This document shows, in pieces, positions 5,831 through 56,400 of a DNA stretch of 64,000 nt. The DNA lies in contig CM102285.1 of assembly GCA_046563655.1 (NCBI GenBank), positions 1,860,001 through 1,924,000 of the forward strand, in the 5' to 3' direction. A program made the translations under genes and the position numbers. This stretch comes from Yuukianura sp. NJ FZ-2021. Its lineage: Eukaryota. Numbering within the stretch: the stretch's first letter is position 1; each line of letters opens with the position of its first letter. A model generated the notes under the pieces. It saw only the letters and a list, made by a program, of their open reading frames with translations, had not been told where the DNA came from and did no database searches.

Positions 5831-6412
5831 AAAACTTGGTGTTTAGATATACGAATTTGCAGATATTTCAAATCCAATTTTGGAAATTCATTTTCCAAGA
5901 CCAACAGCCATGGTGGAGTATTGTACTGAGACAATTTTTGAAGCAAAAAGTGGAACACCACATGAATTACCATGTTTAAATTCAATTGCCGTAGTCACTG
6001 ACAGTCAACTAAACAAATAAATTTGCCCATGGCTTTAATGTAAAATACCAGTAAGTAAGGTAGTTTCCCCCCAACAAAATTTTTTTCATAGTATTTCGTG
6101 AATTTTTAGCACATAATTTTGACAACCCTGATAATAAGTAATAAGAAACGCAGCACGCTTAGTGGGGCCTCGCCTAGAACTATCACATCGTGAACACTAA
6201 TTTAAAATTTCAGTCAGTTTAAAAGAATTCCATTTCGTCTTTTGAACAATATCAACCTCAGCTACGATAAGGAATAGCCGCTTACAGACAGACAATTGAA
6301 ACAAAACATTCCATTAGTATAATATATTTTAAAAATAGGCGTTTAGTTTTTAGCGTACAGACAACCGAAAAAAATGTCTAGTCTAGACTAGAGTTTGAAC
6401 ATTGAAGTGATT

Positions 6413-7341
6413 TTATTGGTTCTTCCAAATGAATGAGTAGCTTTCATATTTAGGATGGTCGCTTGGGAGTTTATCGATTTTAGTTCTCATACAATCTCCG
6501 ACTCTTGGAAGGGCCTCGACCCGGGTCATGTAGCTGACCAAATTCGAGTGAGTTGAAATATGTGAATTCTTCAAATACGAATTCAGCATGGCCAACAAGT
6601 CGTAGAGAACAAAGTCAGCATAGGTCAACCGACTGCCAACAACCCAATTGTTCTGTCCAAGAAATTTTGAAAGTCGTGCCATTTGAACTGGCAGATTTTC
6701 CTGGAAATCTTTTAGCAGAGCTTTTTGCACCTCAATTAGATTTTGGACTCCTTCTGGCGGATAAACGATTTCGTAAAAACTGCGTTTGATGTCCGAAATT
6801 TGATCCAAAATGAGCGTGATACGCACTCGCTCGGCGGGAGTTTCACCATCCAAGTTATGTTTTTGAGCCAAGTACAGCAAGATAGCCATCGACTAAAAAA
6901 ATGGCAATCCAAAAAAGTGTAATCTCAGTAATTTAAAATTTCGAATAAGAAGAAAAAATTTATTTTGATTTCTTACTTGAGTCAGTTTCACATCGCCGTC
7001 AATCAAGTATGGTAAATTCGGAAAGTCAAAAACTTCCGCCATTTTGCTTTTGTCCTTTTCGTACCATTCTGCTGGATTCAGAATATCGTATTCCTTGTAT
7101 TCATATGGAGCGTCAGCATAAGCCAGCAGCAGTCGAATTGACACTTGACCTCTGATGTTCCAGTACCTTTTTTTTTTGTAAAAAAATAGTTTTCAAAATT
7201 TTGGCAATAATTTTACGAGGAAAACTAGATTAAAAAATCCTCGGTTATTCCAGAGACATAAACTAGACGAAGTAGAAGAAGCAATTGTTTGAATAGTTTT
7301 AATAGAAAAATCAAAATATCTTACACTAAAGTTGGTGCCAT
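6413..7341 (-). CDS. GSTM: Glutathione S-transferase, Mu-class-like (copy 3), 3 exons
   Basis: MAPTLV/YWNIRGQVSIRLLLAY...[10 protein letters not shown]; closely similar to copy 2, with a one-codon in-frame deletion in the N-terminal motif. Confidence 0.9.
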
Positions 7342-10124: not shown

Positions 10125-17800
<7,676 letters not shown>

Positions 17801-32400: not shown

Positions 32401-35400
32401 TTGAAGAACGAAGTCAAAAACTTAAAGTCTGGTTAAGATTCTGATTAATTTTCTAATTGAATTCCTATAAATTTTTTCTTAAAATTTCAGGTTGCTGAAA
32501 GTGGAAATGTTAAAGAATTTACGCGACTCATCACAACTGATCCAACCAAATTGAACATTCGTGATGGGCGGGAACGTGGACCAGTACATCAAGCTACTGT
32601 TCGAAATCACGTAGGCATTCTAGAAGTCATTGTCAGTTTCCATGGCAACATCAACCTAGTAGATAACCATGGAAACACACCGCTTCACTTGGCTGTAGAG
32701 TCGGAGTCTCTAGATGCCCTTGGTTTTCTCATTGCGAGGTAAAACTTACAAATGTACATAAAACTTTTCAGAGTTAAAAATTCAAAAAAAAACTTCAATT
32801 TTAACGCCGTTTTCAAAATTTTAGTGGCGCCGATACATCGATTTTGAACGACAGACTGCAGTGCCCCCTGCACTTGGCGGTTGAGTTGAACAAAACGGCA
32901 TGTTTGAAGGTTATGGCCAAATACAAAGAGTATTTGAATGTAAATCAAGGTGGAGAACACGGCAGAACGCCACTACACATCGCATCCATGAACAACTATG
33001 AAGAATGTGTCAGAATTTTGGTAAATTTTCAAATTCAAAAAACAAAATTAAACTTTTTCTGAAAATAGTTTATTTTTTAGCTCTATGACATGGGGGTATG
33101 TCCGCGGATTCCTTGCAAAAACGGGTTCTTTCCGATTCATGAAGCAGCAAAGCATGCGTCATCGGACTCAATGGAAATTTTGTTAAGTTGGGGCGACGAA
33201 AATGGATGTCCGCGTGAAGAGATGATTTCGTTTTTTGACGCCGAGGGAAATGTAACCACCAATAGAAATTTTTGAAATTTTCTAAATTTTGAAAACCGAG
33301 TTTTCTTGAAAATTGAAATTTTGACTATAGGCTCCACTTCATTCGGCTGTTCATGGCGGGGACATTAAGGTAAGTAACCTCAAATCCAATGTGCCTCCCA
33401 CTCACTTTCATTTTGGCACAACACAAGCACATCTCGTCAAAAAGGTAATTAAGTTAAAAGACTAATTAATTAACACAAGGATTGACACGTGACTCCCTCA
33501 CGTTTGTATACTATTATTCCATCAAGGAAGGAAAATTTCCCATTTTCCCGCCAAATTAATTCATGAAACCCTGCTGAACAAGTACAAAGCAGAAACCGAA
33601 GGAGTTAAATTTTGAAATTAGCGCCGTTGAACTTTGTGCTAAATAGCGTAATTTGTGAGCTTCCACGAGCTACACGAGTAACGCTTTTGTCAAAATTTCG
33701 ATGGAACCAGTTTTTGTTACTAAATTTTAGAAATCAAGAGAAAACGGTTGATTTTTTTGAATGCAATTTTTTTGATAGTGCAACAAGAGGTTTTAAAAGT
33801 TTGAATAAAGTTTTGGTGCGTGCTAAATATAAAGTTTTTAGTTTCTCACAAATTTCACGGTCACACAATTTGGAAACGAAATTTGGAAAATTAAATTTTC
33901 ACAACTGAAAACACTTTTGTTCATAATTGATGCAAATTCAGTTTGGATTAATTTTAGTATTCAAATTATGTTGAATGAGAACCTGTAAACATTTTTTTTA
34001 TATTCCAAGCTTCATAAAACTTCATATTTGACACCTTTCGTTTTCACAAACTCAATTTTCAAATTACGTTTATACAACGTGACCAACTTTGGTTTCAATA
34101 GCGGAAGATTTGAATTTTGTATTTTTTTTGCAGGCAGTTGAACTGTGTATCAAATCTGGTGCCAAAATCTCAACGCAACAGCATGACCTTTCTACTCCTG
34201 TCCATCTTGCCTGTAGTCAAGGGTCCATGGAAATCGTCAAACTCATGTTCACGGTAAGTTTGCCACTTTTTTTACTGTATAGTTGTAGAACTTTTTTTAA
34301 AAAAGAATCCCCGTGGTCGCAAACAGGTAGGAAATTAATACGAGGGCACGTTGCCATTGATTTAAAATTGGATTTGCATTTGAGAACGCCCGCGCTCAAT
34401 TTTAGTATAAAATTGAATGAACAACAAATGAAATTTGAAAAAAAAAACGAAGTTTATTTCTCCGGTGTCTGCTAACTACTCAAAGTAATTTAAGTCTCGT
34501 GACGCACAACGTGATCTTTGCTGAGTAGCTATCCAAAACGTTATGTTCTAAAAAGAAAGCCTCAAAATGTTCCACTCCCACGAGTTGAATTTCAAAAAAA
34601 CGAAACTGTTGGAAGCAATTTAAAAAAAATTGCTATAAATTCACCAGCTAAAGAAAGTGAAGCTGAATTTACAAGAAGGTTGGACAGACGGACAGACTGA
34701 CTCAATTGCAATTCGGTACAGTGAAGAATTTTATTACTTTCTTACAACTAAAGTCTACGTGAGATAGAACACTTGAGCATTTGTGAATCAAACTACCAAT
34801 GCATTAGTAATAATAATAATTCATTCGCAATTAGCAATTCTATAAGTAATTAAATTAGTTTGTTTTACAAAGAATAAAACCTTAACAGAAAGCCACCTAC
34901 GTCATGAAAATCCCAAAAAATTGCAGTTTTGAGCAATCAAAACTTCAACATTGGTTTGTGCATGTCATAGCTTGTCACTTGTCTCTGCATTAATAGGTTA
35001 GCCAAGGTGGGTAAACAAGCAGATTGTTGATTGCTACAAGAGGTTATTCATTAACTCGACGTTTTTTAATTTTGTTAAATAATTTGCAAAACTTGCTTCG
35101 CCGTGCCTTACTATGGTAATGATTTGTATGTAATGTAACGGAATTGGCGGAAAAAGATGTTTGCACTCAATTTTTTTAAAACTCGGAGGTATTGAACAAC
35201 CTCTTGTAGCAATACAATTGGTTGCTATAGCAACCTTGAGGTTAGCAACTCACCCCTTGCCTCAGTTCGCACTTATGCAATTATCATTACAAATCCAGAC
35301 ATTTTTAACACTTGGGCATTGATTAATTACTTGAATCTAGTAATTTTATTAATAAAAAATCAATTACGCACCAATTTCTGTCTACATTCCCTGCCAGTTA

Positions 35401-38400
35401 CAAATACCGCACAAACTTGGGAACTAATAGTAAAGCTTCCTCTTAAAAATAATATGATGTGTCCAGCACACTTTTTTGGTTTGTTGACGTTCGTTTTAAT
35501 AATAACAACTATGTACGGCCAACAAACCTCAAATTGGCGCCACAACTTGAACAATATAACCCGGGATTACTTGAATCCCCGCTGCTCAGTGTGTAGCTGC
35601 ATGCCGACCTTTGACCCTGTTCCGCTATCATCTTGGACTCCTTCAACTTATCCCAGGTACATCATAGCTCAAAGTCGACTTATGCACTACTTTGACTACA
35701 AAAGGTCAGAAGGCCATCTCTGGAAGGGAGAAGAGGACATTGGCCTGGTCTACTGCGAGTCATCATTTAGGTCAAAGGTCAACAAAAAAAATATGAGCGT
35801 GTTCGAATGGACGAGAAACGGGCGCAAGATGAAAGTCAAGTGCAAACGGGATGAATTCACTTACTACTGTAGAAATTCGAAAAAGGTCAATAGCCAGGGT
35901 GGTTTTAATTACAGTATACGTTTTGGTCAAAGAGTCTGGAGTGATGACACGACGATTTTGTCGAGATTGTGCATAGGATCAGAAGGTCAAGCTGTTTGGT
36001 CAGTGACGTCGTCGCAGTTGACCTTGAAACGAAGTCAATTGAAAACTATCAAGAAAAAGCTGAGAGAAATCGGATTTTCTTCCAAGAAAATGATCTACAT
36101 GCCCAAAATTTGCGCCAAGTTCAAAAACATAACGGCGACGCGGGACGCAAATATTTAGCTTAAATAAAGACGATCGAAATTTTTTTTTGAAAATATTATG
36201 TTAGTAGTCGAATGTATAAAATAAAACAAGTTATCTTTCCGTAATGTAAAAATTTGTGAATATTAGTGGGAGCACGCCATTGTGTCAATTGAATTGTATC
36301 AACTACATCGTGTCAACTAGAATTGAATCATCTGCTAAACTGCGTCAACGGCTAATTCTGTCAATATTCGTGGATACAAGCAGCCGTTCACAATAGTGCT
36401 TTAAATTTTCACTTTTGAAAAACAAGCACATTGCATATTAGAATTTACTGTTATTTAAAATTTAATTTAATATCTAGTAATAAATTTTGCGATAAGATAT
36501 TTCAAAAATCTCTTCGATCCAAAGTTGTTGTTTTTTTTTTCGTTTGTCACAAAACATCTAAATTTTTTGCATTCTATGTAATGGATTCCTTGCATAGACG
36601 AGTTAAGTATCGTCAGATGAATTTCTCGCTCCGTAAACTGGCTACTTAAGGTATTGCAGCTTCTACATTCGTAAAAGGATCCAAACGTGTTCATAAGTTT
36701 AGGGAAAACTAAAAAGACGGTCAAAGAGGTCAACCAGGTCAACCACAATAGATCATTGACCCAAAGCAGGACTTCGGTTCACACACGTTTTAAGAGGTGT
36801 GTGCAGATACGCTACGCTGTTGGCAAAAACTTTGTATACCGCCAGCAAATCAAGCTGCGTGCTCATAGTTTCTTCCACAAAGTTGACCTTGGAACAGAGT
36901 GAACTTAGAATTATCAGGAAAATTGCGTCTAAAAACTTACTAAATATTTATAGAAAATGGAAATCAGTGAACAACTGTGAACAGTGAAATGAAAAAAAAA
37001 ACGGCAGTAATAAGATAGATATATTAAATCGATTAAAGAAATATAACATGGTAGGTTTTGGAATAATTATGACTTTTCGTATAATTACCTTCTTAAGCTT
37101 AATTACTTTTTTTTCCTTCTTGAGCAATTCGGATTACAAATCCAGACTTTAGGGACACTTGAGCATTATCATAAGTTAATTGGAATTAATTACTTTTAAT
37201 AGAAATTTATGTAATTGCCATTATTTTCACACCATAACTATATCTACTACCACCGTATACGAATTTTGCGCCAAGTAGAAACCAAATACCAGTGTTTGTT
37301 ATGAATGCAAAAAGTACGCAATGGATCTGTCAAATATTTTTAGAGTTTCAATACTCTTACTTTTTCTTTACTTTTTACTTTTTATGACGATGAAAAAATC
37401 GATTGGCGCCAAAGTTTGACAAATGTCAGCGAGACTTAATGAATCCACGTAGTATTTTGGTTGGCATTACTGAATCAAATTACGAATGCATTAGTAATAA
37501 TTCATTCGCAATTGGCAATTCAGGTATTTAAATTACTTTAACAAAAGGTAAAACCTTAACAGAAAGCTAACTCCACTATGAAAATCACAAAAAAATTGCA
37601 ATTTTGAGCAATCAAAGCTTCAACATAGGTTTCAGCGTACACTGTACTTTTGCCATTGTGTATTCCCATCTGGCGCCATAGGTTCATCAATGTGGGACAT
37701 GGAGTATTTGATTAACTTTAGTGAAACCAATTGAACTTCGTCACAGCCAACATTTTTTGGCAACACTTGAACATTACCGCCAGAAACTGAGCATTCCATG
37801 AAACTAAATTTGTTATTCTGATTCACTCCTGCTCACAAACTGATAAAATGCTGGTCAAATAAAACTCCGCCAGAACTGCTACCCGGTTGCTCAGAAAACA
37901 GCAAAATGCGGTTTGTTACAAAATCCGAAGTATCGCTTCTTGCAGTTCTAGTTTTTAGAACAGTAAGTGCCGATTGGCGTAACAGTTTGGCGAATGACAC
38001 AAGCGACTACTTGAATCGACACTGTACTACTTGTAGCTGCCTGCCGACCTTTGACCCGGTTCCACTCAGCTCCGTCTCACGGCTGATCACCTCACAACGT
38101 AGCCCTCTCTTTATTAGTAAACTGACGTATCACTTTGACAGTATATGGACGCAAGACTGGTTATGGAAAGACCCAAACGAAGTTGATCGCATGCTCTGCG
38201 ACTTGTCATTTTCTTCAAAATACATAAAAAAGAAGTTTGTACTGCGCCTGAGCTGTAACACTGGCTTCTTGGATACGAAGTGCAAACATGACAAGTACAC
38301 TTACTACTGCAGGTCTAAAAAAGGAAAAAGTCAACAGAAGGTAAAGGTCAAAGGTCAACCTCCGGGTAAATATAATACATACACATTTCAAGTGGTATGG

Positions 38401-41400
38401 TCAGATGACACGACAGTGTTGGGCAGGTTGTGCGTCGGGTCGGAAGGTCACGCTGGTTGGTCAGTCACTTCTACCAAGAATGAATTAAGCAAAGGCCAAA
38501 TGAAAATTATTAAGAAGAAATTGCGGAAACTTGGATTTGATTCAAACAAAATGCTGAATCTTCGGAAAAGGTGCGACAAAATGAAACGAAAATGAAGAAG
38601 AAAATTTACGTTTTCCTCTGTCTTCCAGACCTCAGAAACGCTTGAGCGTTTCTGCATCATGAAAATAATTAGTAATTTACGTAATTAGTAATTCATGTAT
38701 AATTAGTAGTAATAATTGGCTGAGCTAAAAGAGTTCAAATGTTTCTCTTATACTTGAATACATGAGCATAGTTTACAATTGAAATAAATGTAATATTTTT
38801 GAATCTGGGAAAGGGAAATGATAAGTTGTGATTTCGCTTTTTCGAGTGTTTTCTTTTGCAAATTTGCGATAAAACCAATTTGCATGTGGAGGTGAGAAAT
38901 ACAAGAATTTTTATCGAAGATGTGTTTGTTTAAATGTTCAAACTGCTTGGACACCCACTTCAACCTCGGTTGATTTTGAAGCAAAAAAAAAAAAACTAAC
39001 CAAAATCGCATATCAAGAAAAAAATTTCAATTTCCAGACATTTTTAGTATTCTGTTAGACTGAAATAATAAAGCGCTGATTCCTCTTTAGCATCTGGACA
39101 TTAGTATCTCGAATTAGCAATTCAAGTGTGAAATTTGTATATAACTGGAACCACCTTTTTCCAAGATATTGTGAAGTACAGCAATAGAAAAAGCACAGAA
39201 ATACTGCTACCTAAAAACAATCACGATGGGTTCACCCAAAAACTCCGCAGCGTCGTTACTCTTCACTTTACTTTTTGTAACTACAATTGCCCAAGAACAG
39301 TTTGATTGGCGCCAAGGTTTGGAAAATGTAACCAGGGATTACATTCATCCACGGTGCACTACGTGTAGCTGCATGCCGAACTTTGACCCGGTTCCGCTCA
39401 ACACCGTCGCTCAGCAGCTCACCGCTCCACATTACACGCTTTACCAAAGTCAACTGATGGATCACTGGAACGCTGTGAGGTCAAAGGGGTTGTTATGGGA
39501 CGAAGAAGAAGATGCTGACATGGTCTACTGCGAGTCAACGTTTTGGTCCAAGCCTAGAACCGGAAAGCGTGTTTCTTTCAAATGGACAAGAAACGGTAGA
39601 GTTATGAAGATCAATTGCAAATTCATTTCCGAAAGCGTCGACAATTGCAAAATAAAAACACCAAGAAACCATGGCCATCCAGGTCAACTTCAAAACAAAC
39701 TCGACGAGGAACATTCCAGGTTCGCCTACAGTACTTACACTACTCAAATAGTTTGGAGAGATGACAGAACTCATTTGGTGCGATTCTGCATCGGATCAGA
39801 AGGTCATGCTGTTTGGGCACTCAAGTCAACTAAAACGACCTTGACAAAACGTCAAATGAGAATTATTAAGAAGAAGTTGAAAGAAATTGGATTTTCTGCT
39901 AATGGGATGCTGAATGTTCGCAAAAGGTGTGAAACCCTTAAAGGAAATAGAGTAAGCAACAAGAAGATGGAAATTTGAAATTCGGATTCAGTTTTATTTT
40001 TCACCAAACTACAAACAAAACATGGCTCAGAATGTTTGATAATATTTGGTAAAAAAAATGCTGATTCAGAATGCAAGCCCAGACGTTAGGTGCACTTGAG
40101 AATTAAAATTAGTTACTACTAAAATTAATCTGTTTTAATAAAAATTCATGAAATTAAAATTTCGTTCACTACATTATAACAAATCCAGACGTTTTCAACA
40201 CTTGAGCATTGATTAATTACTTGAATCAATTTGATTTAATAATAAAAATCCGTTGCATACCAATATTGGTCCGCAATCCCTAGCCGTTTACAAATTCTAC
40301 ACAAACGCAGAAACTAATAGTAAGTAAAACCTTCGTGTTGAATACAAGGTACATAGATTATTAATTAATTGTCGAAGTCTCTGAATTAATTTCTCTTTGT
40401 TCTTTTCTGCACAGCAGTTCGAATTAAAATACCAGACTGTAGAAAAAGTTGAGCACAATAATTAAATAGTTGAATTAAATTCATGAAATTGCAATTTCTC
40501 TCTTACCATCGCTATAAATGCGATCACCATTTACGAATTCTACGCCAATGTAGAAACCAAGCATCACTGCTTGTTATCAATACAAAAGTACACGATGGAT
40601 GTGTCAAATATTTTTAGAGTTTCAATACTCGCTTTACTTTTTACAACTACATACGGCGAAGAAAAGTTCGATTGGCGCCAAAGTTTGGCAAGTGTGAGGA
40701 AAGACTTCCTGAACCCACGTTGTACTACTTGTAGCTGCATGCCTACTTTTGATCCGCTTCCGTTCTCGTCCGCTGAGTCGCTGCTGATGTCAAAGCATCG
40801 TTTCCTTTTCTACAGTACGGAAATGTACCGTTTGAAATCTGCACTGGCAAAAATGTGGCTGGCTGAGGACGGAGAGCACATGGACATCACTCTCTGTGAA
40901 GCGTCTCATCAAGCCATGGCTAAGGGGGCTAAAACCAGTAGATACAAATGGAGTAGGAACAAGCGTATGATGAAGTTCAAATGTAAGTGCAACGAGCTAA
41001 CTGACCACTGCCGATTAAAAACTGTGCCCAGCTTATTGAAAAACTCCATTCAACACAACAGAACTGGTCAACCGGGTCAACCAACTCAAGGTCTGTCAGG
41101 TCAACCGTCATCGGGGTTGGACAATTCAAAACGAAGTTCTGAAGGTCAAACAAAGGTTGGATACATTTCATATGCAGCGGAACTAGTTTGGGCAGATGAC
41201 ACAGCAGCTCTGGTTAAAAACTGCATAGGTTCAGAAGGTCAAGCTGCTTGGTCAGTCACATCCACGAAGCTGACCTTGAAAAAAAGACAACTCAAAATAA
41301 TTAAGCAGAAATTGAAGGAAATTGGATTTTCTCCCAAGGGAATGATAGATCTTCGGAAACGGTGTGAAGCGGTTAAAAAAAAGGCAAACCACTTAAGCCG

Positions 41401-44400
41401 GAAGCTTTGGAAAGCACGAGTGAGAAAAACGTAGCCAAAGCAGGAAAACCCTTCTTCTTCTTTTTTTGTTATTGTTTCATTCTTTATATTTTTTGAAAAT
41501 GTTAGAACAGCGTAGTAGATTTTGGAATAATTAAACACTTAATTGTAACTTGTGTGTTCATTTACGTGCCAACTACTTATTTGTTCACTTCTGTGCAATT
41601 TGTATTACAAATCCAGACGTTTTCAACACTTGTGCGTTAATTAATCATTTGAGTCAATTCGTATTTAACAGAATTTATTTTTCACCCTTCATAACTCGCC
41701 TTTACTTTGTACACAGAAGTTGAAAATAGGTAACCACAAGTCACGTTTTGAAAACAAAAATGATGTGTAGTATAACAAAATTTGTTAGATTGTGGTTCTT
41801 CACTTTACTTTTGACGATTACCTACGCCAGAGAGAAATCGAATTGGCGCCAAGGTTTGAGCAATGTGACGCGGGATTATTTGAATCGGCGTTGTACAACG
41901 TGTAGCTGCTTGCCGGCATTTGACCCCGTGCCGATATCATCCGTGACGCTACCGAATACACCTACATACTACGTGTTAGTTCAAAGTACACTTATGTACT
42001 ACTATAACTATAGGCGGTCAGAAGGCTACCTCTGGGAACAAGTGGAGGACATTGAACTCTTTCATTGTCAGTCATCGTTTAGGGCAAAGGTCAAGAAAAA
42101 CAAAATCATCATTTTCGAATGGACGAGGAACGATCGTGTGATGAAGATAAAGTGCAGAAGAGATGAATTCACGTACTACTGTCGACACAAACCAAGGGTC
42201 CAAGGTAAATCTACTTCTGACTACAGCTCACTTACCGCTCAGATAGTCTGGGCAGACGACACGACGATTTTGTCTACATGGTGCGTAGGGTCAAAAGGTC
42301 AAGCTGTTTGGTCCGTCACTTCGACGCAGTTGACCTTGCGAAAGCGTCAATTGAAAATTATCAAGAAAAAACTGAGACAAATCGGATTTTCTTCCAAGAA
42401 AATGATTTTTCTATCAAAAATGTGCGCCGGGGTGAAAAACAAAACGGTAACATACGACGGAAAGAATGAGTTTATGCAGAAAAGTTTTTTGTTGTTGTAG
42501 TAAATAAGTTGGAAAATTTTAATAACTGTATTATGAATTTTTTTTTCTCGATGGATCATCATAATGGACATGTTGGAATAAATCTTGTAATCTGGACAGT
42601 CTAATGTTTTTACCTGTTTTATTTTTGTATATTTGCATCACAATTGCCAATGTTTTCAGTAACTGCACATTTATGCTGCGACAAACTGGCTGAGGGCATT
42701 CACCTCTCGTTGATTAGGCATGAGGATTTTGAAAATTTGAACCCCATTGAGCAGTAGTAGTAACACTCATGGCCCAGCATCACATTCAATCAATCTAATA
42801 TGGATCTATTACTTTTCCTTGTTTCCAATTTTCTGTTTGCTGTTACTGCCAGTGCGAAATCACATTGGCGCCAAAGGTTGAGCAGTACGAATCGTAGTTA
42901 TTTCAATTCACGATGTTACTTCAACCAAGAAAATGTTGAATCTTCGTCAACGATGTGAAAATTTCAAAAAACAAAAAACCATGCAACACGCAAGTTCATC
43001 ATAAGTTTGAAGAAATATTAACGATAAATTTCATATATGAATATAATTTTGAGTAAAAAATGATTAATAAAGTTTTTCGTGGTAGCGTGCAAAGTATTAC
43101 GGTGTGTAATGCGGCGCCAAATCTGAATTTACTTAATTTTGTGGAAATGAATTTGAAGTGCGTTACAACATTTTGAGTAACTAATTTTGAAAATTTAAAA
43201 CTTCCAATATAAACCAGTGTTTAAGGCATATTTTTTTTTGTCTTCTGCGTCACGTGACTAACCGCATTTGCAGTACTGTTGTCCTTGCGAGTCAATGAGA
43301 ATTGTTCTACCTTGGACAATAACTGGCGTCAAAGTGACGGGTTTTTGCGACTGCGAAATTTGAATTGTCGTGGGTTTTTGGTTACCAATGAAATACGGTG
43401 GATTTTGAATTTGGGTGACTTGGTAGCCGACTTTGCTAGTCGGTTGTGGCTGTACTTGTTGTTGCTGCGTAGTGTGCGTAGTAACGGTCGTCACTGTGCG
43501 AGCTGCACCGTTTGAATTCACCGTGTTTCCGTTTCGATCATAGTAAACGACTTGTTGGCCGACGTTACCGGTCGGGAATTGCGTCCCAACGATGACGTTT
43601 GCATTAGGTTGCTGTTGTACACCTTCTGGTTTGGCCCATCCCGCAGCATCGCATTTGCCCAACATTCCTTCTTCTGGAAGCCATGCACCTACCGCCTTGC
43701 CCATCAGTGTCCCGTATGCTGACCACGCTTTGCTCGCAGCTCCAGAATCCACTGGTTGCGGTCCATCTCCCTTCCAGACAGTGTAGCCATTGGTGTTGCA
43801 GAAGCCAATGAACGCCTCAGGCGATATGGCATTCTCTGCAGTTCCAAGGACCTTTGTAAACCCATAAACTAGATACAAAATTAAAAAATAGTAGTAAAAA
43901 AGTAGTAAAAAGAAGTAAGAAACATAAAAAAGCGGATGTAGTGAATAGTTTATACTATTTATATCCCTATACTACTATGACACATACAATATTATAATCC
44001 TAGTGCAATAGAAAACTGTGAATGAAACTACAGAAAACGAGTTAAATCATAAACCGCAAAACGCAAAATTAACCAAAACGTATCAATTCAAATGACTTAC
44101 GAGCATCGCCAAACATCGAGGCCTCACTCTATGGAGAAATAAAAATAGTTTATAAGTTACTGAAGTCACTAAATCCAATGAAAACTTCCTCTTAAAAAAT
44201 GCTTGAAACTCATTTTAAAAGAACATTTAACTAAAAAAGTTGTTGTAAATAATGTACTTACGGCTGTAACAATAGCCATGACAAGAAACAGAGCGTTGGC
44301 AAACATAACGAAATCGGATGTAGGATGGAAATATGTAAGAGAAAAGATTACGACGGTAGTCGGTATGATTGAATTCACATTTTTTGAATGCTATTTGTAT

Positions 44401-47400
44401 CAAAAATTTATCAACGTTAAAATTCTTAATTAATTAGTAATTAAAGTTGAGGTTGAAGACCTCCTGATTTTCCAATACGCTTTTCAAAAATGTAACTTCC
44501 TGGTGTTCTAAATTAACTCTATTAATGGTCGACGCTTCACGTCTTTCGTACTTGATCTTTTGAGGATGATAAATCTCATAGGTATCAGCAAACCTCAATT
44601 TTAAACTCTTAACTAACCACTTTAAAGAATTGCGATGTCTAGGACCTTGTATGGGATACATGGAAGCAATTGGAATTGGAAGGAGCCGCACACGCTTGAC
44701 CCGAATAATGCTGATTGAGTTTATTGACGAATATTTGATTATCAATGTTTACGATATTAGGCAAGGGAATCTAACTTGCGAATCTTCAATTGCTACGTCT
44801 AATTCTTTTTTAAAGTCGTGTGAATTTGGAATTGAAATGTGTTTTTTTTCTATTGAATTTCAAGTGCGTTCCTCTGGGATCCAGAAGATAGTTATGCGCA
44901 AGGGCAAAATCTCTTTCCGTTTGAGTCAATCAGAATCTGTTTCCCTCTCTCAACAACCAAAGTCACCGTTACAGTGGTTTGCTTAATAATTTGTTCGTTG
45001 TTACCGACAGCTGGAACTCTGTTGCCATGTTCATCAATGACGTAAATGATTTCGGTGCTGCCGCCCTTGACTGGGACTCGGTTGCCATGTTCATCAATGG
45101 TGTAAATGATCGTGGTATCACCAGCATTTCCACTTACAGGAACTCGGTTGCCATGTTCATCAATGGTATAAATGATTTCGGTGCTGCCGCCATTGACTGG
45201 GACTCGGTTGCCATGTTCATCAACGGTGTAAATGATCGTGGTATCACCGCCATTACCCTTCACAGGAACTCGGTTGCCATGTTCATCAATGGTGTAAATG
45301 ATCGTGGTATCACCGCCATTACCCTTCACAGGAACCCGGTTGCCATGTTCATCAACGGTGTAAATGATCGTTGTATCACCGCCATTACCAGTCACAGGAA
45401 CTCTGTTGCCATGTTCATCAATGGTATAAATGATCGTGGTATCACCGCCATTACCCTTCACAGGAACTCGGTTGCCATTTTCGTCAATGGTATAAATGAT
45501 TTCGGTGCTGCCGCCATTGACTGGAACTCGGTTGCCATGTTCATCAACGGTGTAAATGATCGTGGTATCACCGCCATTACCTTTCACAGGAACTCGGTTG
45601 CCATGTTCATCAATGGTATAAATGATTTCGGTGCTGCCGCCCTTGACTGGGACTCGGTTGCCATGTTCATCAATGGTGTAAATGATCGTGGTATCACCTG
45701 CATTGCCTTTACCAGGAACTCTGTTTCCATGTTCGTCGATGACGATCGTAGTATCACCGCCATTGCCCTTCACAGGAACTCGGTTGCCATTTTCGTCAAT
45801 GGTATAAATGATTTCGGTGCTGCCGCCATTGACTGGAACTCGGTTGCCATGTTCATCAACGGTGTAAATGATCGTGGTATCACCGCCATTACCCTTCACA
45901 GGAACTCGGTTGCCATGTTCATCAATGGTATAAATGATTTCGGTGCTGCCGCCCTTGACTGGGACTCGGTTGCCATGTTCATCAATGGTGTAAATGATCG
46001 TGGTATCACCTGCATTGCCTTTACCAGGAACTCTGTTTCCATGTTCGTCGATGACGATCGTAGTATCACCGCCATTACCCTTCACAGGAACTCTGTTGCC
46101 ATGTTCATCAATGGTGTAAATGATCGTGGTATCACCGCCATTACCCTTCACAGGAACTCTGTTGCCATGTTCATCAATGGTGTAAATGATCGTGGTATCA
46201 CCGCCATTACCTTTCACAGGAACTCGGTTGCCATGTTCATCAATGGTATAAATGATTTCGGTGCTGCCGCCCTTGACTGGGACTCGGTTGCCATGTTCAT
46301 CAATGGTGTAAATGATCGTGGTATCACCTGCATTGCCTTTACCAGGAACTCTGTTTCCATGTTCGTCGATGACGATCGTGGTATCACCGCCATTACCCTT
46401 CACAGGAACTCGGTTGCCATTCTCATCAATGGTATAAATGATTTCGGTGCTACCGCCATTGACTGGGACTCGGTTGCCATGTTCATCAACGGTGTAAATG
46501 ATCGTGGTATCACCGCCATTACCCTTCACAGGAACTCGGTTGCCATGTTCATCAATGGTATAAATGATTTCGGTGCTGCCGCCCTTGACTGGGACTCGGT
46601 TGCCATGTTCATCAATGGTGTAAATGATCGTGGTATCACCTGCATTGCCTTTATTAGGAACTCTGTTTCCATGTTCGTCGATGACGATCGTGGTATCACC
46701 GCCATTACCCTTCACAGGAACTCGGTTGCCATGTTCATCAATGGTGTAAATGATCGTGGTATCACCGCCATTACCCTTCACAGGAACTCTGTTGCCATGT
46801 TCATCAATGGTGTAAATGATCGTTGTATCACCGCCATTACCAGTCATAGGAACTCGGTTGCCATGTTCATCAATGGTGTAAATAATTTCGGTACTGCCGC
46901 CCTTGACTGGAACTCTGTTTCCATGTTCATCGATGGTGTAAATGATCGTGGTATCACCGCCATTACCAGTAGCTGGAACTCTGTTTCCATGTTCATCAAG
47001 TGCGTAGATGATCTGACTGCCTTCTGGTACTTGTACTTTATTTCCATTCTCGTCGATGGTCCAAACGTAGTGGGTCGTTGTAGTTGTGCTGGAGCCGCCA
47101 GTAGCTGGAACTCGGTTTCCATGTTCATCAAGTACGTAGATTATCTGACTGCCTTCTGGTACTTGTACTTTATTTCCATTCTCGTCGATGGTCCAAACGT
47201 AATGGGTCGTTGTGGTTGTGCTGGAACCGCCAGTAGCTGGAACTCGATTTCCATGTTTATCAAGTACGTAGATGATCTGGTTACTGCCTTCTGGTACTTG
47301 TACTTTGTTTCCATTCTCATCGATGGTCCAAACGTAGTGGGTCGTTGTGGTTGTACTGGAACCGCCAGTAGCTGGAACTCGGTTGCCATGTTCATCAAGT

Positions 47401-50400
47401 ACGTAGATGATCTGGTTACTGCCTTCTGGTACTTGTACTTTGTTTCCATTCTCATCGATGGTCCAAACGTAGTGGGTCGTTGTGGTTGTACTGGAACCGC
47501 CAGTAGCTGGAACTCGGTTGCCATGTTCATCAAGTACGTAGATGATCTGGTTACTGCCTTCTGGTACTTGTACTTTGTTTCCATTCTCATCTATGGTCCA
47601 AACGTAATGTGTGGTTGTGGTTGTGCTGGTACCAGTAATTGGAATGCGGTTTCCGTGCTCATCTACTCTGTATTCGCCTTGCCAGGAGATGCTGCCTCCT
47701 CCTGTTGGGAATTCAATTTGGCCTCCCTGACCGCCTAAAGAGAGTCCACTGCCGCCGGTTTGAAATCCACCATGACCTCCAGAAGTCTGCCAAGAGATTT
47801 CCTTTCCACCGTTTCCGCTACTTCCCCATGAGACACCACCAGGCAGACCACCAAGTCCACCCTGGCCACCACTTGTTTGCCAAGAAACTCCGTTTCCGCC
47901 TCCACTTTGCCAAGAAACACCACCGTTTCCACCACCGCTTTGCCAGGAAACGCCACTGTTACCGCCGTTTCCTCCGCCGCTTTGCCAAGATACACCATTT
48001 CCTCCGCTTCCGCTTCCGCCCCAAGAGACTCCGCCAGAGAGGCCACCAGGTAGACTGCCGGATATACCGCCGGAAGATACACTGCCAGAAATACCTCCGG
48101 TTAGACCTCCAACTGGAACGAAATAATCAATGCAGTTTTATAATGCGCTACTTAACCTTCTGTATCTTTATACAGTATTGTTCCGCGAAAAGTAGACACA
48201 AACAAACTCAAAAGTTTGGTAAACTTGATTCTAAATTTCTGGAAATTTCAGATTATGAAAAAATATTTAGCCTCAGACAGCTTTACCAACAAAAGTCTTT
48301 CCAAGTTTGCGCATAATCTGAGTATAGCTGAGTAATTTTGTAGAATTTTTTTTTTATAAAGGTATCATTTGTGTCAATACTTCGCAATGAAATTGGCAAA
48401 GCATGCTTTTCTAGAACAATTGCAACTCACTTGATTTGGAAAACGCAGCAGCATCACCCTGTTGGGAAATGGAAACAATTTTTTTTTAAAGTTTTGTTAG
48501 ATTAAATTTTTAAGAAATTTTAAATCTAATCTAAAGCATAATTGGTTCGTCCGAACACAGAATTACGACATTCACATTTCTTCAGTTATACGAAAATAAG
48601 TTTTTTTAAAAAGAATTTCTTAATTTAATCTTTACCTAACATTCAATTCAATTTTTTAAAAACTTACCGCAACTACTATAGCCAAAACGCACAAGAGTGA
48701 ACGAGTTACCATAGTCTTGGATTTGAATTCAGTCTCTCTTTTTAGTTTTGAGAGACAGTTGAGTCTATCAACTGGAATGAACTTGGTCAGTCGCAAGAAT
48801 ATTTGAACAAGAATTAATCGGTTGCTAACGTGTCACAACTCCACTTAATTGCCACGATAATCGTCACAGTTCCTTGTTTTAATTGGTTAATCGCTTTACC
48901 ACATGGGGTGGTTATGCGATTTTTGAAATTTCATCGTTGCAGGTCTAACCACCACTGTTACCAAGCAGCTTAGAAAGGATTATGCACTGTAGGTGCGGTT
49001 TTTGCAAAACTCATGGTGTATCCGTGATTTCAAGGCGGTTGCTACGGTTAAGTTAAAATAATCTCCAATTTGAGGGCATTTAGAAAAAATGTTGAGAAGA
49101 GATGCACTCGTTTAATTAAAAAAAATTAAAACCAGAATTTTTATGCCAAATTTTTGGTTGTAGTTTTCCATTGGTTTTTTGTTGTTACTCGTCCGATCTT
49201 TTACAATTTCCGCGTCTCTTTATCCAACGCACCGCATACCACTGAAAATGAAAATTTCAAAAAAAAGTCAAACAACTTTGCAGAACTTTTTTGAAATTGG
49301 TTTCTATGATGACTTACGCGTTAGAGCCGTCGTCTCCATCACCTTTGAGGGAATTAGCCATGAAGACAGCGGAAGAATACGAAAGTCGTTTTTGTCGTTT
49401 CTGTTCCGGGAGATTTCCATTCTCCGCCTCTACTGCTCTAAATTTTGATTTAAAAAAACACAATTTATAGCTTTAGAAAAGTGAAGAAAAGTCAATACAT
49501 TTTTCAAAAACTCGAAAACTGAGAGTACATTGGTGGGACCAAACTAAAAGCTCAAACTATTCAACAGTAAAGTTGTTGCAAAAATTTCGGTTTTTGAATT
49601 TTCGAATTTGTGGAGTGTCACCAAGGTTGATAAAGAAAGAATTACTTTTCCATTAACAGGTTAGGCAATAACTTGAGTTTTAAGTTTTTTGGGAAAAATT
49701 TTCAAACTGAATTCACCTAGTTTCAATCGCGGTTGGTATGGTAAACGGATTAAAAAATTCAGAGAGATGGCTTTTGAATTGGGAAATTCAAAGTAAAGAA
49801 AAGATTAAAAGGTAGAAAAACAACAATTAGAAAACAAAAAGAGAAATATAGAAAACAAGAAGAAAAAATTGTTTGAGTCAATATTTTTCAAAACAGGGCT
49901 TATTGCCTAACCTGTTAAAGGAAAACTATTTTGTTGCTATAGTAACGTTGAAATTCATGTGATATGTTGAGTATCACATGAATTTCGAACATTCCAAGGC
50001 AACTAAACAAAAAGACACAAGAGCTTTCTAAGGTAGTCTCACGAGCGGTTTTTTCAATTTTTTTTGCGATATTTTTTAGTGGGGCGGATTGTTCGGTTTC
50101 CAAGGAAATAAAACTTTATAAAATTCGTACAAAGGTTGGTTGAGGTAACAATGATGTGTTACTTGTAACCAGTGTTCAGTATTTTATGCAAATCAACTAT
50201 TTGCCATAGAGTTGCATTGAATTCGTAGTAATTATAAGGGTAAAATTTGTCGATTCCATTTTACAATCCAAAAACCAATCTACACCATTAGCCCCATTAT
50301 TGGCTACACTGGGTGGTTACAATGGAGGAATTTGACTTTGTACTCCGACCGACGGAAAACGTTGTCAGAGCAAAGTTAATAACAAACAATCCGCCCCACT

Positions 50401-53400
50401 AAAAAATATCGCGAAAAAAATTGAAAAAACCGCTCGTGAGACTACCTTAGAAAGCTCGTGTGTCTTTTTGTTTAGTTGCCTTGGAACATTCCAAATAATT
50501 TGAACAGTACTTCGCTTCGCGTGTCTGTCTGCTTTTTGCATTGCCTCGTGTAATTCCCCTCCCATTTTGAGATGAGTCACCATTGGTTGATTCTGGAACG
50601 CGTTCTGCTGGGAATGATTTGTACTTGAGAAATTCTCCAAGTTCTACTTCCGTGTCATACATTGATGTCAACATGCCGCCAAAAGTTGGCGGGTAAATTC
50701 GGTTTTCGCTGAACTTGAATACCGTTTCATTCATGGCATACATAACCAATACACCTGGTAGCCCTGCATCTTCATCCAGCTCAACCAATCCCGTTCCGTT
50801 TCGGGCTCGAATGATGCTGATGTCGGTATTTGCACAATCCAATTTGCATTTCTCTGTTAACAGAAAAAAAATATTTCAAAAATACTTTTTGAGATTTTAG
50901 AAACTTCGAAAAAAAAGTGGAAGTTTTGGAACCAAAGAAAAGCGGGATAAGATTTTGCCGAGTTTTGCGCAGAAACAAGTCTCGTTTTGGATCCATTTTG
51001 GCATACTGTGCGCATTCTTGCATTTCGTTTTTCCCTAGAAAAATTTTGTCTTTGTTCGTAAAAGTGTATTTCTCCATAAACGAATCTCCGTCTTGATCTT
51101 CAAAGTGGTATTCATTAACTCCATGCAAATCAGGTGCAAGTGCGACGCAGCGACGATGAATGTCACCGCGAAACGAACGCAGTTCACCGTTTAGCACAAA
51201 AACGTGAGTTTTGCCTCCTGCTAGTGGAATTTGAGCAGGTTGATCTGCGTAGCTTGTGTAAAGATCAATCGTCTCTGAAATGACGACGACGAATGGAATG
51301 TTTGGAGCTTTTTGCCACATTGCCCAGGGAAGGAGTTTAATGTACGATTTGGCGGGACGGGCCAAACATTGACCATAACCAAATACTATGTCTTCATAAA
51401 TTTTATTGGAGTTGTATGTGATGAACCTGAAAAAGTTTAAAAATTAAAATTTTTAGAAAACTTTGAAAAATTTATGACTTTCAAACCTACGGCAAATTAC
51501 TTAGAAACTAAATCGGAATTTATTTTCTAAATAATTTCAGCATGTTCGAGGAGGGGAGAATAAGAAATGTCGTGCACAAAATTCTTGGGAAAATTTGTAT
51601 TGAAATTTTAAAATATCACAAAAATTTTTGTTTCTAAACAACTTGCTGTTGGGAATTTTTTTTTTTACATTTTAAATTTTGATTGGTTGACTTACGCTCC
51701 GTTGAATCTGAGTTGCTTAGAACTAAATTCCTTCATGGCTTCCGCATCTCTGCAAATCTTTTCCTCTCCCGGATTCTCTACACTGCAGTACTCGATAAAC
51801 GAATTTTTCTCATGTCCAGTTCCCGCGCAAATTTGAATCTGCAAAATCGTCACTGCGCCCAGAATTATCCTCAAGTGCGACCTCCACATTGAATCCAACA
51901 ATTGAAAAAAATTTACAAAAGTAACAAAAATTAAAAAACGTTATCAAACGTATGTTCCTGGTTATTCGGAATTTTAATTCCTTGAAACCATATTGTCTCA
52001 CTTGCTTAGTTTTTAATTAACTTAATTACCCACTACTTCAACAAAGATAAGAATTAACAAAGTCCATAAGCTAGGTTGAATAGAACAATTTACTTTTTAT
52101 TGCTACTTTCTTTTTCAGTACTAAAATTGTTTATAGAAAACAATTGCATCAGTGTAGCCCAGTCCTTTTAAATTTCCAGCCTTCGGCACACGCCCGATTT
52201 CTTCAAATCCAAACTTTCTCCAGAGTTTGATCGATGCTTCATTCGTGACATAAACCAAGTTAAAGACGCTTGCTTTGTAACCAAGGTCAGGAGCCACTTG
52301 AATAAACTTTGGAACCAAGTATGTAGCTACTCCTTGACCTTGCCAATCTTCATGCACTATGAAACCGGCATTGCAAATGTGGGAACTCCTCCCGGGGTAA
52401 TTCGGCTTAACATAGAATCCACCGATGACTTGACCTGTCTTGACCTCTCTTAGTACAAATGTTTCATGAGATAAGTAATAAGCTCTGAAATCATCCAGAC
52501 TGTTCATGACTTCTTGTGGATATGTTTGACCCTGGTCTAAAATTGTTTTGAAAATTGAAAATAGTTGAGGCACGTCTGCTTCTGCGTAGTGGTCAAATTC
52601 AACTTCAGTGCCTGACCTCAGTTGACCTTTGACTGGCAAGTAGTGCAGTCGCTGTTTCCCTTTGTTCTCAATCACATATGCTGCCATTCTAAAATGAATT
52701 TGCTTTGTTAGATACTATTTGCTGTTTGTTTTATATTTTTCACTTTGTTATGTATATTAATTAAATCACGGTTGAAAGAAACACTGACGAGGTGTACTTC
52801 ACAAGTAAAGAATGAATAGATTTATGGCAACTGTTACAAGCGGGGCTGGGTTTAGTTGTAAGGTTTTTGCATCAACTTTTAAGAACATGAGATAATGGAT
52901 ATCTAGTTCCTTGACCTTTGACACGGCACGTGAAATGTACTCTTCTGTGTTTAAAATTACCCGCGCAAATGAAAATTTTGAACCTTTTACAATGAAGAAT
53001 TTCTGTGGTTGCTTTAATTAACTTTTCTGTTGTTCTGATTTTCAGTTACAACCAGAAGAAAAGGAAATTTGCCTGAGGTCATGTGATTTGCAGAGAATGA
53101 CGCCATTGCACTGTAATTCTGTTGCCTCTTTTCACTTTAACCTAACATTTTCAATTTCCATTACGAAAGTTCATATCTCAAAAACAAATTTCCTAAATTT
53201 TAGGTGCTGCTATTTTTGATCACTGTGATTTGGTGGAGTACCTGATTTCTCAGGTTAAAAACTAAAAACTTATTAACAAAAACGTTTATTTTTTACATTA
53301 AGTTTTTTGACTAAATTTAATTAATAAAATGCGTTGTCATAAATCATATTTTTTTAAAAAAAATTTCATTAAGTTTTTGTTGTAATTGTATGTAGGGTAG

Positions 53401-56400
53401 TGCCGTTAACGCTTTAGACAAGGAGCGACGGTCACCCCTGCATTTGGCTGCTTTTCGAAACGGTTGGAAAACAATGCGAACTTTAATGAGACTCGGAGCT
53501 TCGACGAGCGTAAAGGACAACGACAACAGAAATGTTCTGCACGCCATTGTCATTCATGGTGGCGAGTTGGACAAGTTCCTGGATGACGAAATTTGTGTAA
53601 CCTTAACTTTTTGAAAACTTTTGGTTTAAATTCAATGTCTTACATTAGTTTTCTGTTTCTATCGTGCATTAGTTCTTTACAGGCTTCTAATTTGCTTTCA
53701 GCAGAGCAAAATACTTACTTAAGCATCTTCGCTCTGGAAAAGTCACTACCCTACTTTTGTGACAAAATGATAATTATCATTTTGTCACGAAAAATAGGTC
53801 ACAAAAAATTTCAATTTCATTTAAATTAATTAAATTGAAATTGAAATTTGGTTCAATAGAAATTAAACAAAAAATAAAATATTTAGAAAGTTTTTCATTG
53901 TAAAAGTATTTTTTTTAACAATGATTTTTTTTTCAGACTGAATTCATTCCAATCTTGGAAGAAAAAGATAAAAATGGATTTACACCTTTGCATTACGGTA
54001 TTTGGCAATATTCAATCTAGTTTTACTAACACAACTTTTAGTTAAATTAGTTAAAATTAATAGTTCCTAACTTAATTTCTGTTTTTTTTATAATAGCTGC
54101 AAAACACGGACATATTAAAACTGCTGCCAAACTTTTAAAGCTGGGAGCAAATGTGGCAACTAAAAACAACGAAGGCGAAAACGTTTTCCACTTGGCTTGC
54201 CGGTGACGCTTCATAAATTTTTAGGCAAAATTTTGTTTTCTTCGAGTTGGTTTGTTTTAAAATTAGGAATTGTTTAATTTTTTAAAGTTTTGGACGCGTC
54301 AACATTATCAGCTTGATTTTGAAAACCGAAATTAACAATTCCATTATCAACGAGGGAAACGGAAAGGGCTTGACTCCACTTCACATTGCCAGCACTGAAG
54401 GTCAACTTTAATAAATATTGATAACTATAATAATATTAATTAAAATAAATGTATAAATAAAATGTTAATAATTTTCTTCTTAGGTCATCTGCGTGTGGTA
54501 CAAATACTTTTGAAAAGAGGAGCCATTTTACACCGTGACCACGACGGCCGGACACCGCTTCACTTGGCATCTAAAAATGGACACAGAGACACCATGAAAC
54601 TCATTCTCAATGTCCATTCTCACTTGCTTGACCAAATTGACAAAGATGGGGTACCTGCTCAATTTTTTCAAAAACTCAAAATTTTGATACAAATTTTCAA
54701 TTTTTTTGATTTTTAGAACACAGCTCTTCATGTGGCTAGTCAGGAAGATCAACCAGCAGCGGTTGACCTTCTGTTGACCTCCAACTGCTCGTTGACCTAC
54801 AATCACAATGGATTCAGTGCTATTGACTTTGCTCTGCAAAACAAGTTTATGGGCGTGGCACTTGTAATGGTCACGCACCCAGCAAGGTAAAATTTACTTT
54901 CAAAAATGTTACAAATTTCAAAAATATCAAAATTTTGAAACATTTTTGGTTACAAGGGGAGACGAGGTACTGGGCATGACAACTGGGAAGTATCCGTCAG
55001 TGATGCTGGGGCTAATTGCAACTATGCCACAAGTCGTTACTGCCGTTTTGGATACTTGCATTACCAAGTCAGAGACAAAAAGCGACAGCGAGAGCTTCAA
55101 TGTAACAAAAAAAAGTTTGCACACGTCAAAACTTCAAAAATTTTGAACAAAATTAAAATTTTTTATGTGCAGATAAAGTTTGATTTCAAATGGCTGTCAT
55201 TGGTGGAACCAGAAAAATGTGAAGAAACTGCCAGCCAAGATGCAGCTTCCAGTCATCGCCGAGAGAAAGCAGATGAGAGCTTTGCCAGCGCTACGGAGAG
55301 AAAGCATTTGCCAATTCTAAATGTTTGGGCAAAAACATATTTGAAAAAATAATTTTTGAAATTTTCTAATTCTTAAAATTTGGTTTTTAGGGAATGGTTT
55401 CCTATGGGCGAGTGGAGCTCCTGAGTCACGAACTTTCTCTGAAATATTTGCAAATGAAGTGGAACGCTTATGGGAAGTACATTAACTTGGCGCAACTGAT
55501 TCTGTACTCACTGTACCTGGCATTTGTAACGCATTTTGCTGCGTCAGTTGTGCGTCATGACAATGACGTTGTAGATGACAACGACGAGGAAGAGCAACAT
55601 ATACGACGCATGCGCATGTTTGGCCATTTCAACGATACTTACACTGCATCTACTTTACATGCCGTAAGTAACCAAGAACTAAAGCAGAAACAAAACAAAT
55701 TCCTTCCGAGGCCCAACCACAAGTGTATTTTGGGTTTTTGAAATACATCGAAATTATGAACTTTCAAAACTTTACTTTTCATTTTTCTTTCTAAAATATT
55801 TTGAAAAAAAAAAATTAAATTAAACATTTTTTGTTTATAGGTTACACATCAGCAAACAATGATGCACAAACTCAATGCACTTGGGATTTTCTTGGTGGCG
55901 TTTTTGAATCTTGCACGTGAAGCTGGAAATTTGTATCAACAATCTCTGAAGTATGCTTTAGACACTGGGAATTGGTAAGCCAGAGACTGATAACTAGATG
56001 GTGCGAATGTCTAAAATTTTAAAATTTTCAAAAAATCTTTACTTTCAAAATTTAAGGATTTTCTGGGTTATGAACGGCGCATGCTTGGTGATGGTGGTAC
56101 AGGCTTTCTCACTATCTAATGACGATTCTGCAAATGCAAACACACCAGCGGCTTTGGCAGTATTTCTGGGATGGTTCTACTTGCTTTTGTTTTTGCAGCG
56201 GTAAAATTTCAAAATTTTAAAAAGTAAAAAATTTGACGTTAACTTGATACTAAATAAGTTTTTTTTTCAAAAACTAGATTCGACGTGGTTGGAATTTATG
56301 TCGTAATGTTCCTGGAAATTCTTCACACGCTTCTGCGCGTCCTCATGGTTTTTTCAATTTTAATTGTCGCTTTTGGCTTGGGATTCTACATTCTACTGTC

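Follow-up and report, generated by a model that had tools for sequence, protein, structure and literature searches.

A window of 64,000 nucleotides from Yuukianura sp. NJ FZ-2021 (the whole stretch of DNA analysed; GenBank assembly GCA_046563655.1, contig CM102285.1, forward-strand positions 1,860,001 to 1,924,000, with all coordinates below counted from its first letter) contains what we read, with a probability of about 80%, as one TRPA1 gene that houses nine further genes within a single intron. An 18.8-kb intron in a single TRPA1 gene had been proposed in a first-pass annotation of the sequence alone, and it is borne out by consensus splice sites and by the alignment of seven TRPA1 orthologues across the break. 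The intron and its bounding exons are as follows.

34134..34253, + strand: TRPA1 ankyrin-repeat exon before the long intron (AVELCIKSGAKISTQQHDLSTPVHLACSQGSMEIVKLMFT), with donor GTAAGT at 34254 (sequence, Pfam Ank/Ank_4, orthologue alignment)
34254..53045, + strand: TRPA1 long intron, 18,792 bp (splice sites and orthologue alignment)
53046..53112, + strand: TRPA1 exon after the long intron (LQPEEKEICLRSCDLQRMTPLHC...), its orthologue residues collinear with, and directly continuing, those of the previous exon

The upstream exon ends in ...AAACTCATGTTCACG|GTAAGT (KLMFT|gt), a consensus donor (ACG|GTAAGT at 34253/34254), and the downstream exon is preceded by ...TTCTGTTGTTCTGATTTTCAG|TTACAACCAGAAGAA (LQPEEKEICL), a consensus acceptor (TTTTCAG|TTA at 53045/53046) in which a long pyrimidine tract is followed by CAG; both exon ends, at 34253 and 53046, are in phase 0. 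Seven full-length TRPA1 orthologues served as tblastn queries against the window, and the high-scoring segment pairs (HSPs) ending at 34250 or 34256 were compared with the HSP starting at 53040. Across 34253|53046 the orthologue residues abut or overlap by at most 3 residues in all seven cases (P0002, 51-90|90-117; Allacma P0003, 297-337|337-376; P0004, 273-313|313-347; Folsomia P0005, 265-305|305-339; P0011, 271-310|308-331; P0010, 259-299|299-326; P0017, 198-240|238-265). The exon at 34134-34253 is 67-90% identical to the seven orthologues, and that beginning at 53046 is 43-82% identical. The alignments are collinear from ~32.5 kb to ~60.2 kb with each segment present once, and no TRPA1 HSP from the seven queries, and hence no hidden alternative TRPA1 exon, was found within 34257-53039. 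The abutting residues and the lack of any internal match therefore point to one TRPA1 gene with an 18,792-bp intron.

Ankyrin repeats flank the intron on both sides (Pfam Ank, Ank_2 and Ank_4 at 32461-33059, 34134-34253, 53396-53611 and 54444-54713), and an ion-transport domain (PF00520) follows downstream at 56452-56940 (expectation value, E, 1.5e-6), collinear with the transmembrane regions of the orthologues. A search with this pore-region exon returned 692 proteins at E<=0.001 out of 1,824 candidates; among the best 120 of the 692 matches the named proteins are all TRPA-type channels, mostly called TRPA1, headed by springtail TRPA1-type channels (Orchesella, Allacma, Folsomia; 52-54% identity) and then insect TRPA1. 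By these names, and by alignments that run the full length of the orthologues, the gene is probably TRPA1 and not another TRPA member, in an arthropod that the matches place most likely among or near the springtails. The earlier remark that most introns measure less than 300 bp agrees with 11 of the 16 gaps in the HSP chain of Folsomia P0005, the others being 343, 514, 746, ~2,800 and 18,789 nt (the ~2,800-nt gap shrinks to ~2.6 kb once the HSP at 56972-57133 is included). The long intron is ~50-300 times the length of most TRPA1 introns, and two other long ones measure ~5.8 kb and ~2.6 kb. At the 5' end of the gene, 26336-26641 (+) matches the Allacma N-terminus (aa 1-82, ...VCLLRESPFRILRV) and 28218-28340 (+) matches the Folsomia N-terminus (aa 9-48). 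By these matches TRPA1 appears to have two alternative first exons, pointing to a choice of promoters or N-termini and to a ~5.8-kb first intron; a single gene would begin with first exons at ~26.3 and 28.2 kb and end with one at ~60.2 kb.

Were the ankyrin half and the ankyrin-plus-channel half separate transcription units, the block between them would be ordinary intergenic space; five same-strand genes with poly(A) hexamers do lie between the halves, whose junction is deduced from sequence alone. The halves, however, fit together exactly: in all seven orthologue comparisons no part is lost or repeated where they meet, and the break itself carries a consensus phase-0 donor and acceptor. The identity of both flanking exons to the orthologues argues for continued coding selection, and neither a start-codon exon of a 3' gene nor a TRPA1-like terminal exon was seen inside the intron. 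We consider such a split extremely improbable. The variant in which the halves would belong to two paralogues, named at the outset as the alternative to be checked, is strongly argued against by the same collinear alignment, in which nothing is duplicated.

The nine nested genes lie wholly within 34254-53045, where their ATG-to-stop spans occupy 10,609 nt (56% of the intron), and they are strictly divided by strand, five same-strand genes coming first and four opposite-strand genes after them. By composition ~0.0009 open reading frames (ORFs) of at least 234 codons would be expected in the window. Eight of the nine proteins carry signal-peptide-like N-termini, as had been claimed, their mean Kyte-Doolittle values over the N-terminal 10 residues being 2.25-3.46 as against 0.17 in the ninth, an acetyltransferase of the GNAT family. 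The nested genes have a GC content at third codon positions (GC3) of 0.39-0.53 and the host and neighbour genes one of 0.35-0.57, within a window that is AT-rich (GC 0.34-0.48 in 2-kb windows), has short introns and yielded no non-coding RNAs or tRNAs. The same-strand block, which we call the L array, comprises five intact genes, three relics and a repeated upstream element.

35454..36158, + strand: L1, single-exon secreted lipocalin-fold paralogue (by predicted structure of L3), 234 aa (ORF, alignment, dN/dS, tree)
37906..38595, + strand: L2, single-exon paralogue, 229 aa (ORF, alignment, dN/dS)
39226..39978, + strand: L3, single-exon paralogue, 250 aa, the protein whose structure was modelled (ORF, alignment, structure model)
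40595..41434, + strand: L4, single-exon paralogue, 279 aa, with a Gln/Pro/Gly-rich insertion (ORF, alignment, dN/dS)
41760..42500, + strand: L5, single-exon paralogue, 246 aa, nearest L1 at 59% identity (ORF, alignment, dN/dS, tree)
36713..36969, + strand: relic 1, degenerate L-type C-terminal fragment with stop codons (tblastn)
37321..37433, + strand: relic 2, frameshifted L-type N-terminus (MDLSNIFRVSI...), nearest L4 (tblastn; repeat match 94%)
42800..42974, + strand: relic 3, L-type N-terminus fused to an L-type C-terminus, with an internal deletion (ORF, tblastn)
35286..35314, + strand: upstream element ATTACAAATCCAGACnTTTnnAACACTTG, 29 nt, with copies at 37133-37161, 40176-40204 and 41604-41632 (motif count, alignment, repeat families)

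The paralogues and relics of the first-pass annotation were thus recovered as ORFs and by tblastn; with the five L proteins as queries, the latter found the three relics in the intron and nothing convincing elsewhere in the window. L1-L5 run from ATG to stop without an intron, encode 229-279 aa, share 39-59% identity, and have eight invariant Cys and hydrophobic N-termini. The ratio of non-synonymous to synonymous substitution (dN/dS) is 0.18-0.43 in all 10 pairs, with dS of 0.74-3.0, from which we conclude that the five, as judged from their sequences, are old duplicates held under purifying selection, neither recent copies nor decaying ORFs. A maximum-likelihood tree that includes 10 full-length relatives (four fragment rows shorter than 200 aa were dropped) unites the five in a single group at 100/100 support. 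Inside that group the pairings are L1-L5 and L3-L4, so that the array was built by block duplications and losses and not by simple copying between neighbours. The 29-nt element occurs 4 times against 0.00 expected, always on the + strand and inside the intron: ~130-190 nt 5' of the starts of L1, relic 2 and L5, and in a fourth, geneless copy before L4. These four copies agree within 3 mismatches, and the flank belonging to L4 itself holds a more divergent one (65% to the family reference). The duplicated units therefore include the 5' flank as well as the gene, and the element most likely serves them as a common promoter or enhancer. An extra, geneless copy of the L1-type 5' flank at 40150-40330 (+), 86% identical over 76 nt to 35283-35358, stands just upstream of L4's flank, and its presence speaks for the rearrangement of blocks in the array. 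The L array is a birth-and-death tandem family of five live copies and three relics, and the proposal that a cluster grew inside TRPA1 stands for these five paralogues, on the strength of their 100/100 grouping, the relics and the duplicated 5' flanks. An AATAAA or ATTAAA lies 4-187 nt past the stop codon in each of the five genes.

The L proteins had been called lipocalin-like, a description that holds at the level of the fold, by structure model and Foldseek, and fails by Pfam. On the opposing side, none of the five matches the Pfam lipocalin families (PF00061, PF08212) at E<=0.1, Pfam Lipocalin touches only 1 of the 19 L-family members (E 3.5e-4), and a profile of the family against the sequences of the PDB gave 5 matches at E<=10, the best at E 0.44 and none a lipocalin. 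The signature motif of lipocalins, G-x-W at the first strand, is not conserved before the first strand in the L-family alignment, whose conserved Trp residues stand directly after the signal peptide and at position 177. The assignment thus depends on a predicted structure. Relatives for the underlying alignment came from an exhaustive profile search, which found 15 at E<=0.001 (3 at <=1e-10; best 5e-23), all matching in length and plan, with a signal peptide and then a W-x-W...C-x-x-C-x-C segment; a word-indexed search with the five-paralogue alignment had given nothing at E<=0.01 among 2,557 candidates from 5.8 billion proteins. The family also has a conserved C-terminal block, VW-D...C-G-EG...W-LTST...LGF. 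An AlphaFold2 model of L3 built from the 19-sequence alignment reached a predicted local distance difference test score (pLDDT) of 83.6 and a predicted template-modelling score (pTM) of 0.77, with strands at 69-74, 105-110, 115-122, 125-133, 138-144, 170-178, 182-189 and 194-201 followed by a helix at 208-220 (an earlier five-sequence model was poor, pLDDT 56.1, and its lipocalin matches were taken as a lead only). In a Foldseek comparison of the L3 model with the PDB, all 38 rows listed are lipocalins, with E from 9e-7 and target-normalised template-modelling (TM) scores of 0.51-0.66, including L-PGDS, nitrophorins, NGAL and anticalins, MUP, C8-gamma, the Rhodnius amine-binding protein and boar salivary lipocalin. 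The language-model Atlas leans the same way, to arthropod lipocalin, triabin and nitrophorin clusters, with a score (2130) that lies below the 2300 level and makes it a lead only.

By the model, then, the L proteins are a secreted lipocalin-fold family, undescribed and outside Pfam, assigned at the level of the fold and not by sequence. They resemble lipocalins in their signal peptide, in the predicted eight-stranded barrel plus helix and in their nearest solved structures, and differ in having an additional N-terminal stretch of ~45 residues, rich in Cys (RCTTCSCMPTFDPVP), and in ending with a basic tail. The salivary lipocalins of arthropods occur in expanded families, and the L array is like the tandem arthropod arrays (Rhodnius nitrophorins and amine-binding proteins) in being multi-copy and rapidly diverging. 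By analogy with these proteins, the L proteins most likely bind a small hydrophobic or amine ligand outside the cell.

The opposite-strand block has the composition first proposed for it: two paralogous secreted genes (M1 and M2), one secreted gene without known relatives (M3) and a GNAT.

43258..44306, - strand: M1, three-exon secreted gene, 227 aa; exons 44306-44262, 44128-44101, 43868-43258 (gene model)
44892..48712, - strand: M2, three-exon secreted paralogue of M1, 1,097 aa; exons 48712-48668, 48458-48431, 48112-44892 (gene model, PF21786)
50447..51889, - strand: M3, orphan secreted gene, provisional, 364 aa; exons 51889-51696, 51426-50933, 50853-50447 (gene model)
52121..52687, - strand: GNAT acetyltransferase of MPR1/aca1 type, single-exon, 188 aa, without a signal peptide (Pfam, PDB sequence match)
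49982..50496, no strand: inverted repeat, its 112-nt arms (96% complementary) set around a spacer of 291 nt (repeat search)

M1 and M2 are built alike, with the signal peptide on a first exon, then a micro-exon of 28 nt and a single large exon, and share a C-terminal end, ...ILIDSxGxxxCxC (BLASTP E 6e-5). M2 has a Gly-rich N-terminal part and then 42 beta-hairpin repeats with D[EK][HN]GN[RK] tips, encoded in ~30 copies of a 60/66-nt unit with higher-order periods (six 312-nt copies at 91% matches and five 135-nt copies at 95%). It is the sole solid Pfam repeat match among the nine genes, scoring 58.3 bits in 5 stretches against the six-fold beta-flower profile PF21786 (cut-off 34), and in its other Pfam rows no stretch passes alone. 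Beta-flower proteins carry a [DNEQ]xxG motif at the hairpin tips, with which the M2 tips agree, and are mostly bacterial (PMC10584680). By profile M2 is probably a beta-flower-type repeat protein, with a propeller kept as an alternative by sequence matches, weak ones, to designed Pizza beta-propellers (E 0.002-0.04).

Such repeats matter for the integrity of the locus, since the 18.8-kb block might have been misplaced by the assembler between two TRPA1 exons that are really parted by a short intron. The disproportionate length of this intron would fit an artefact of that kind, and so would the 2.7-kb M2 array, whose repeats are 91-98% identical and difficult for an assembler. The window, however, contains no N, and no repeat shared by the two intron ends, from which a false join could arise, was found within it; composition and GC3 agree with the neighbouring genes; TRPA1 has further long introns; and long introns are the norm for nested genes in Drosophila (a median of 4,826 bp for introns that hold them, compared with 138 bp; PMC3814207). 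A misplaced block is very improbable, and the copy number within M2 may be unstable or mis-assembled.

In the provisional model of M3 a signal-peptide exon is followed by exons of 164 and 134 codons, joined by the sole frame-preserving GT..AG pair, of which the donor, the second of the gene, is weak (TTG|GTTCCA). M3 has no Pfam match, no usable Atlas match and no PDB sequence match better than E 0.31. The arms of the inverted repeat lie at 49982-50093 and 50385-50496, the right one overlapping the region of the M3 stop codon, and the element is possibly a small foldback or a miniature inverted-repeat transposable element (MITE)-like sequence. M3, and possibly some L genes, could accordingly be among nested ORFs that are dead or non-autonomous, either untranscribed or present only in the TRPA1 precursor: the three relics make clear that copies die in the array, M3 lacks relatives, needs a weak donor and ends in an inverted repeat, and the word-indexed search produced no close homologue of the L proteins. 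Set against this, none of the 10 L pairs reaches a dN/dS of 0.45 although dS is at or near saturation, chance would not be expected to yield ORFs of such length, the sequence of the upstream element has been conserved and the structure model is confident, so that we regard partly dead ORFs as quite unlikely.

The GNAT gene matches PF00583 (E 4e-13) and, over residues 36-186, the MPR1 chains 3w91 (E 9e-30), 3w6x and 3w6s (E ~1e-29), and by these matches its product is an acetyltransferase of the MPR1 type, taken to be cytosolic. A search returned 616 proteins at E<=1e-5, including L-azetidine-2-carboxylic acid acetyltransferase-like proteins and aca1, with named relatives in amphioxus, bivalves, a hemichordate, nemerteans, a spider and early-diverging fungi. 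The named distribution is patchy, and the best 120 of the 616 matches include no insect and no named springtail. Horizontal transfer of this gene or of the whole block was considered and set aside, the GC3 being neighbour-like and the named relatives being animals and early-diverging fungi.

How a channel gene might be expressed across such a block can be outlined as a model. The first-pass annotation had envisaged a cluster belonging to a secretory tissue, with TRPA1 transcription either reading through five poly(A) sites or giving truncated ankyrin-only transcripts. In our model the nested genes would be driven by promoters of their own, active in tissues outside the sensory neurons that use TRPA1; in TRPA1-expressing cells polymerase would read through a silent array, and the whole block would be spliced out as one intron. 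Intronless same-strand copies would offer TRPA1 no competing splice sites, and the poly(A) signals of the L genes would either be ignored or cost some TRPA1 output through premature termination. All five same-strand genes are single-exon, and three of the four opposite-strand ones have two introns.

Several points weigh against the picture drawn here. Promoters, poly(A) sites, tissues of expression and the splicing of 34253 to 53046 are inferred. The five same-strand genes are paralogues, so that their shared lack of introns counts as one event and not five. A count of splice-like motifs in the intron, 5 donor-like and 4 acceptor-like on the + strand and 13 and 5 on the - strand, gives no clear depletion on the host strand, the count being crude and the numbers too small to judge. 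Poly(A) hexamers are frequent (1.55 per kb per strand), so their presence after the L stops is weak evidence. The near-identical array in M2 is a kind of sequence that assemblers mis-size. M3 is the least certain of the nine genes, with no relatives, a weak donor and a 3' end over an inverted repeat.

It is also conceivable, if unlikely, that the same-strand lipocalin-fold array acts as a built-in switch, its promoters or poly(A) sites, where active, ending TRPA1 transcripts inside the intron. Ankyrin-only N-terminal proteins, or no channel at all, would then be made wherever the array is active, sensory neurons would have to suppress five intronic poly(A) sites in order to make TRPA1, and the output of a nociceptor gene would be coupled, in opposition, to a lineage-specific cluster of secreted proteins. 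Nested genes that cause intronic polyadenylation of their host have been described for mouse H13/Mcts2 and for L1 elements and nested genes (PMC13309782, PMC3192792); in pairs of the H13/Mcts2 type truncation of the host is documented, whereas for the TRPA1 locus it is a model only.

Returning to TRPA1 as host of nine genes in a single intron, nesting as such is less rare than the first-pass annotation implied: ~10% of D. melanogaster genes are nested (PMC3814207), and an intron of Drosophila dunce holds Sgs4 and four short, intronless 'ng' genes with signal peptides (PMC10835880, citing Furia et al. 1990, 1993). In the Drosophila survey 71% of nested genes are opposite-strand and hosts are biased to brain; 72.5% of same-strand nested genes are single-exon, compared with 37.4% of opposite-strand ones, a pattern of strand and introns that Lee and Chang (2013, PMC3814207) explained by selection against mis-splicing. 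The TRPA1 locus, by the text of that survey, is similar in its neural host, in an intron far longer than its neighbours, and in young, fast-evolving duplicates, and it goes in the same direction in having single-exon same-strand genes and opposite-strand genes with about two introns. Unlike in Drosophila, five of the nine genes are same-strand, a majority that arose because one same-strand gene expanded in place.

From what is described of it (PMC10835880), the dunce intron is the closest precedent: there too a neuronal host contains a dense cluster of short, secreted, partly intronless, repeat-bearing genes unrelated to it. dunce is a cAMP phosphodiesterase gene with glue-protein cargo, and the TRPA1 locus carries predicted lipocalin-fold and beta-hairpin-repeat cargo, known here from the genes alone, in nine genes with a strict split by strand. 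Given this precedent the locus counts as a new example and not as a new kind, unusual in gene number (nine), in a same-strand majority reached by in-place expansion and in its cargo families. No paper on this locus was found in the literature on springtail TRPA1 or on Collembola lipocalins, judged without full texts.

Elsewhere in the window, three tandem glutathione S-transferase genes, each with a 159-codon C-terminal exon, occupy 2315-7200 (-), the first of them matching Pfam GST_C_3 (E 2e-15). A multi-exon four-domain cation channel, NALCN-like by ORF reading only, lies at 10400-17800 (+), and an FkbM-type methyltransferase gene (PF05050, E 4.6e-10) at 22678-24288 (-).

For annotation pipelines the locus is a warning, being easily mis-called as two TRPA fragments. 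It offers a gene-dense example of intron colonisation outside Drosophila and mammals, with a conserved sensory channel gene as host, and its pattern of strand and introns agrees with the view that nested genes are shaped by selection against mis-splicing. The locus further reveals two poorly known families of secreted arthropod proteins, a lipocalin-fold orphan family (as predicted) that is invisible to Pfam and a putative beta-flower-type protein of 42 hairpins. As a natural system, the intron would lend itself to studying how several same-strand genes inside a host intron are dealt with by polymerase and by the machinery of cleavage.

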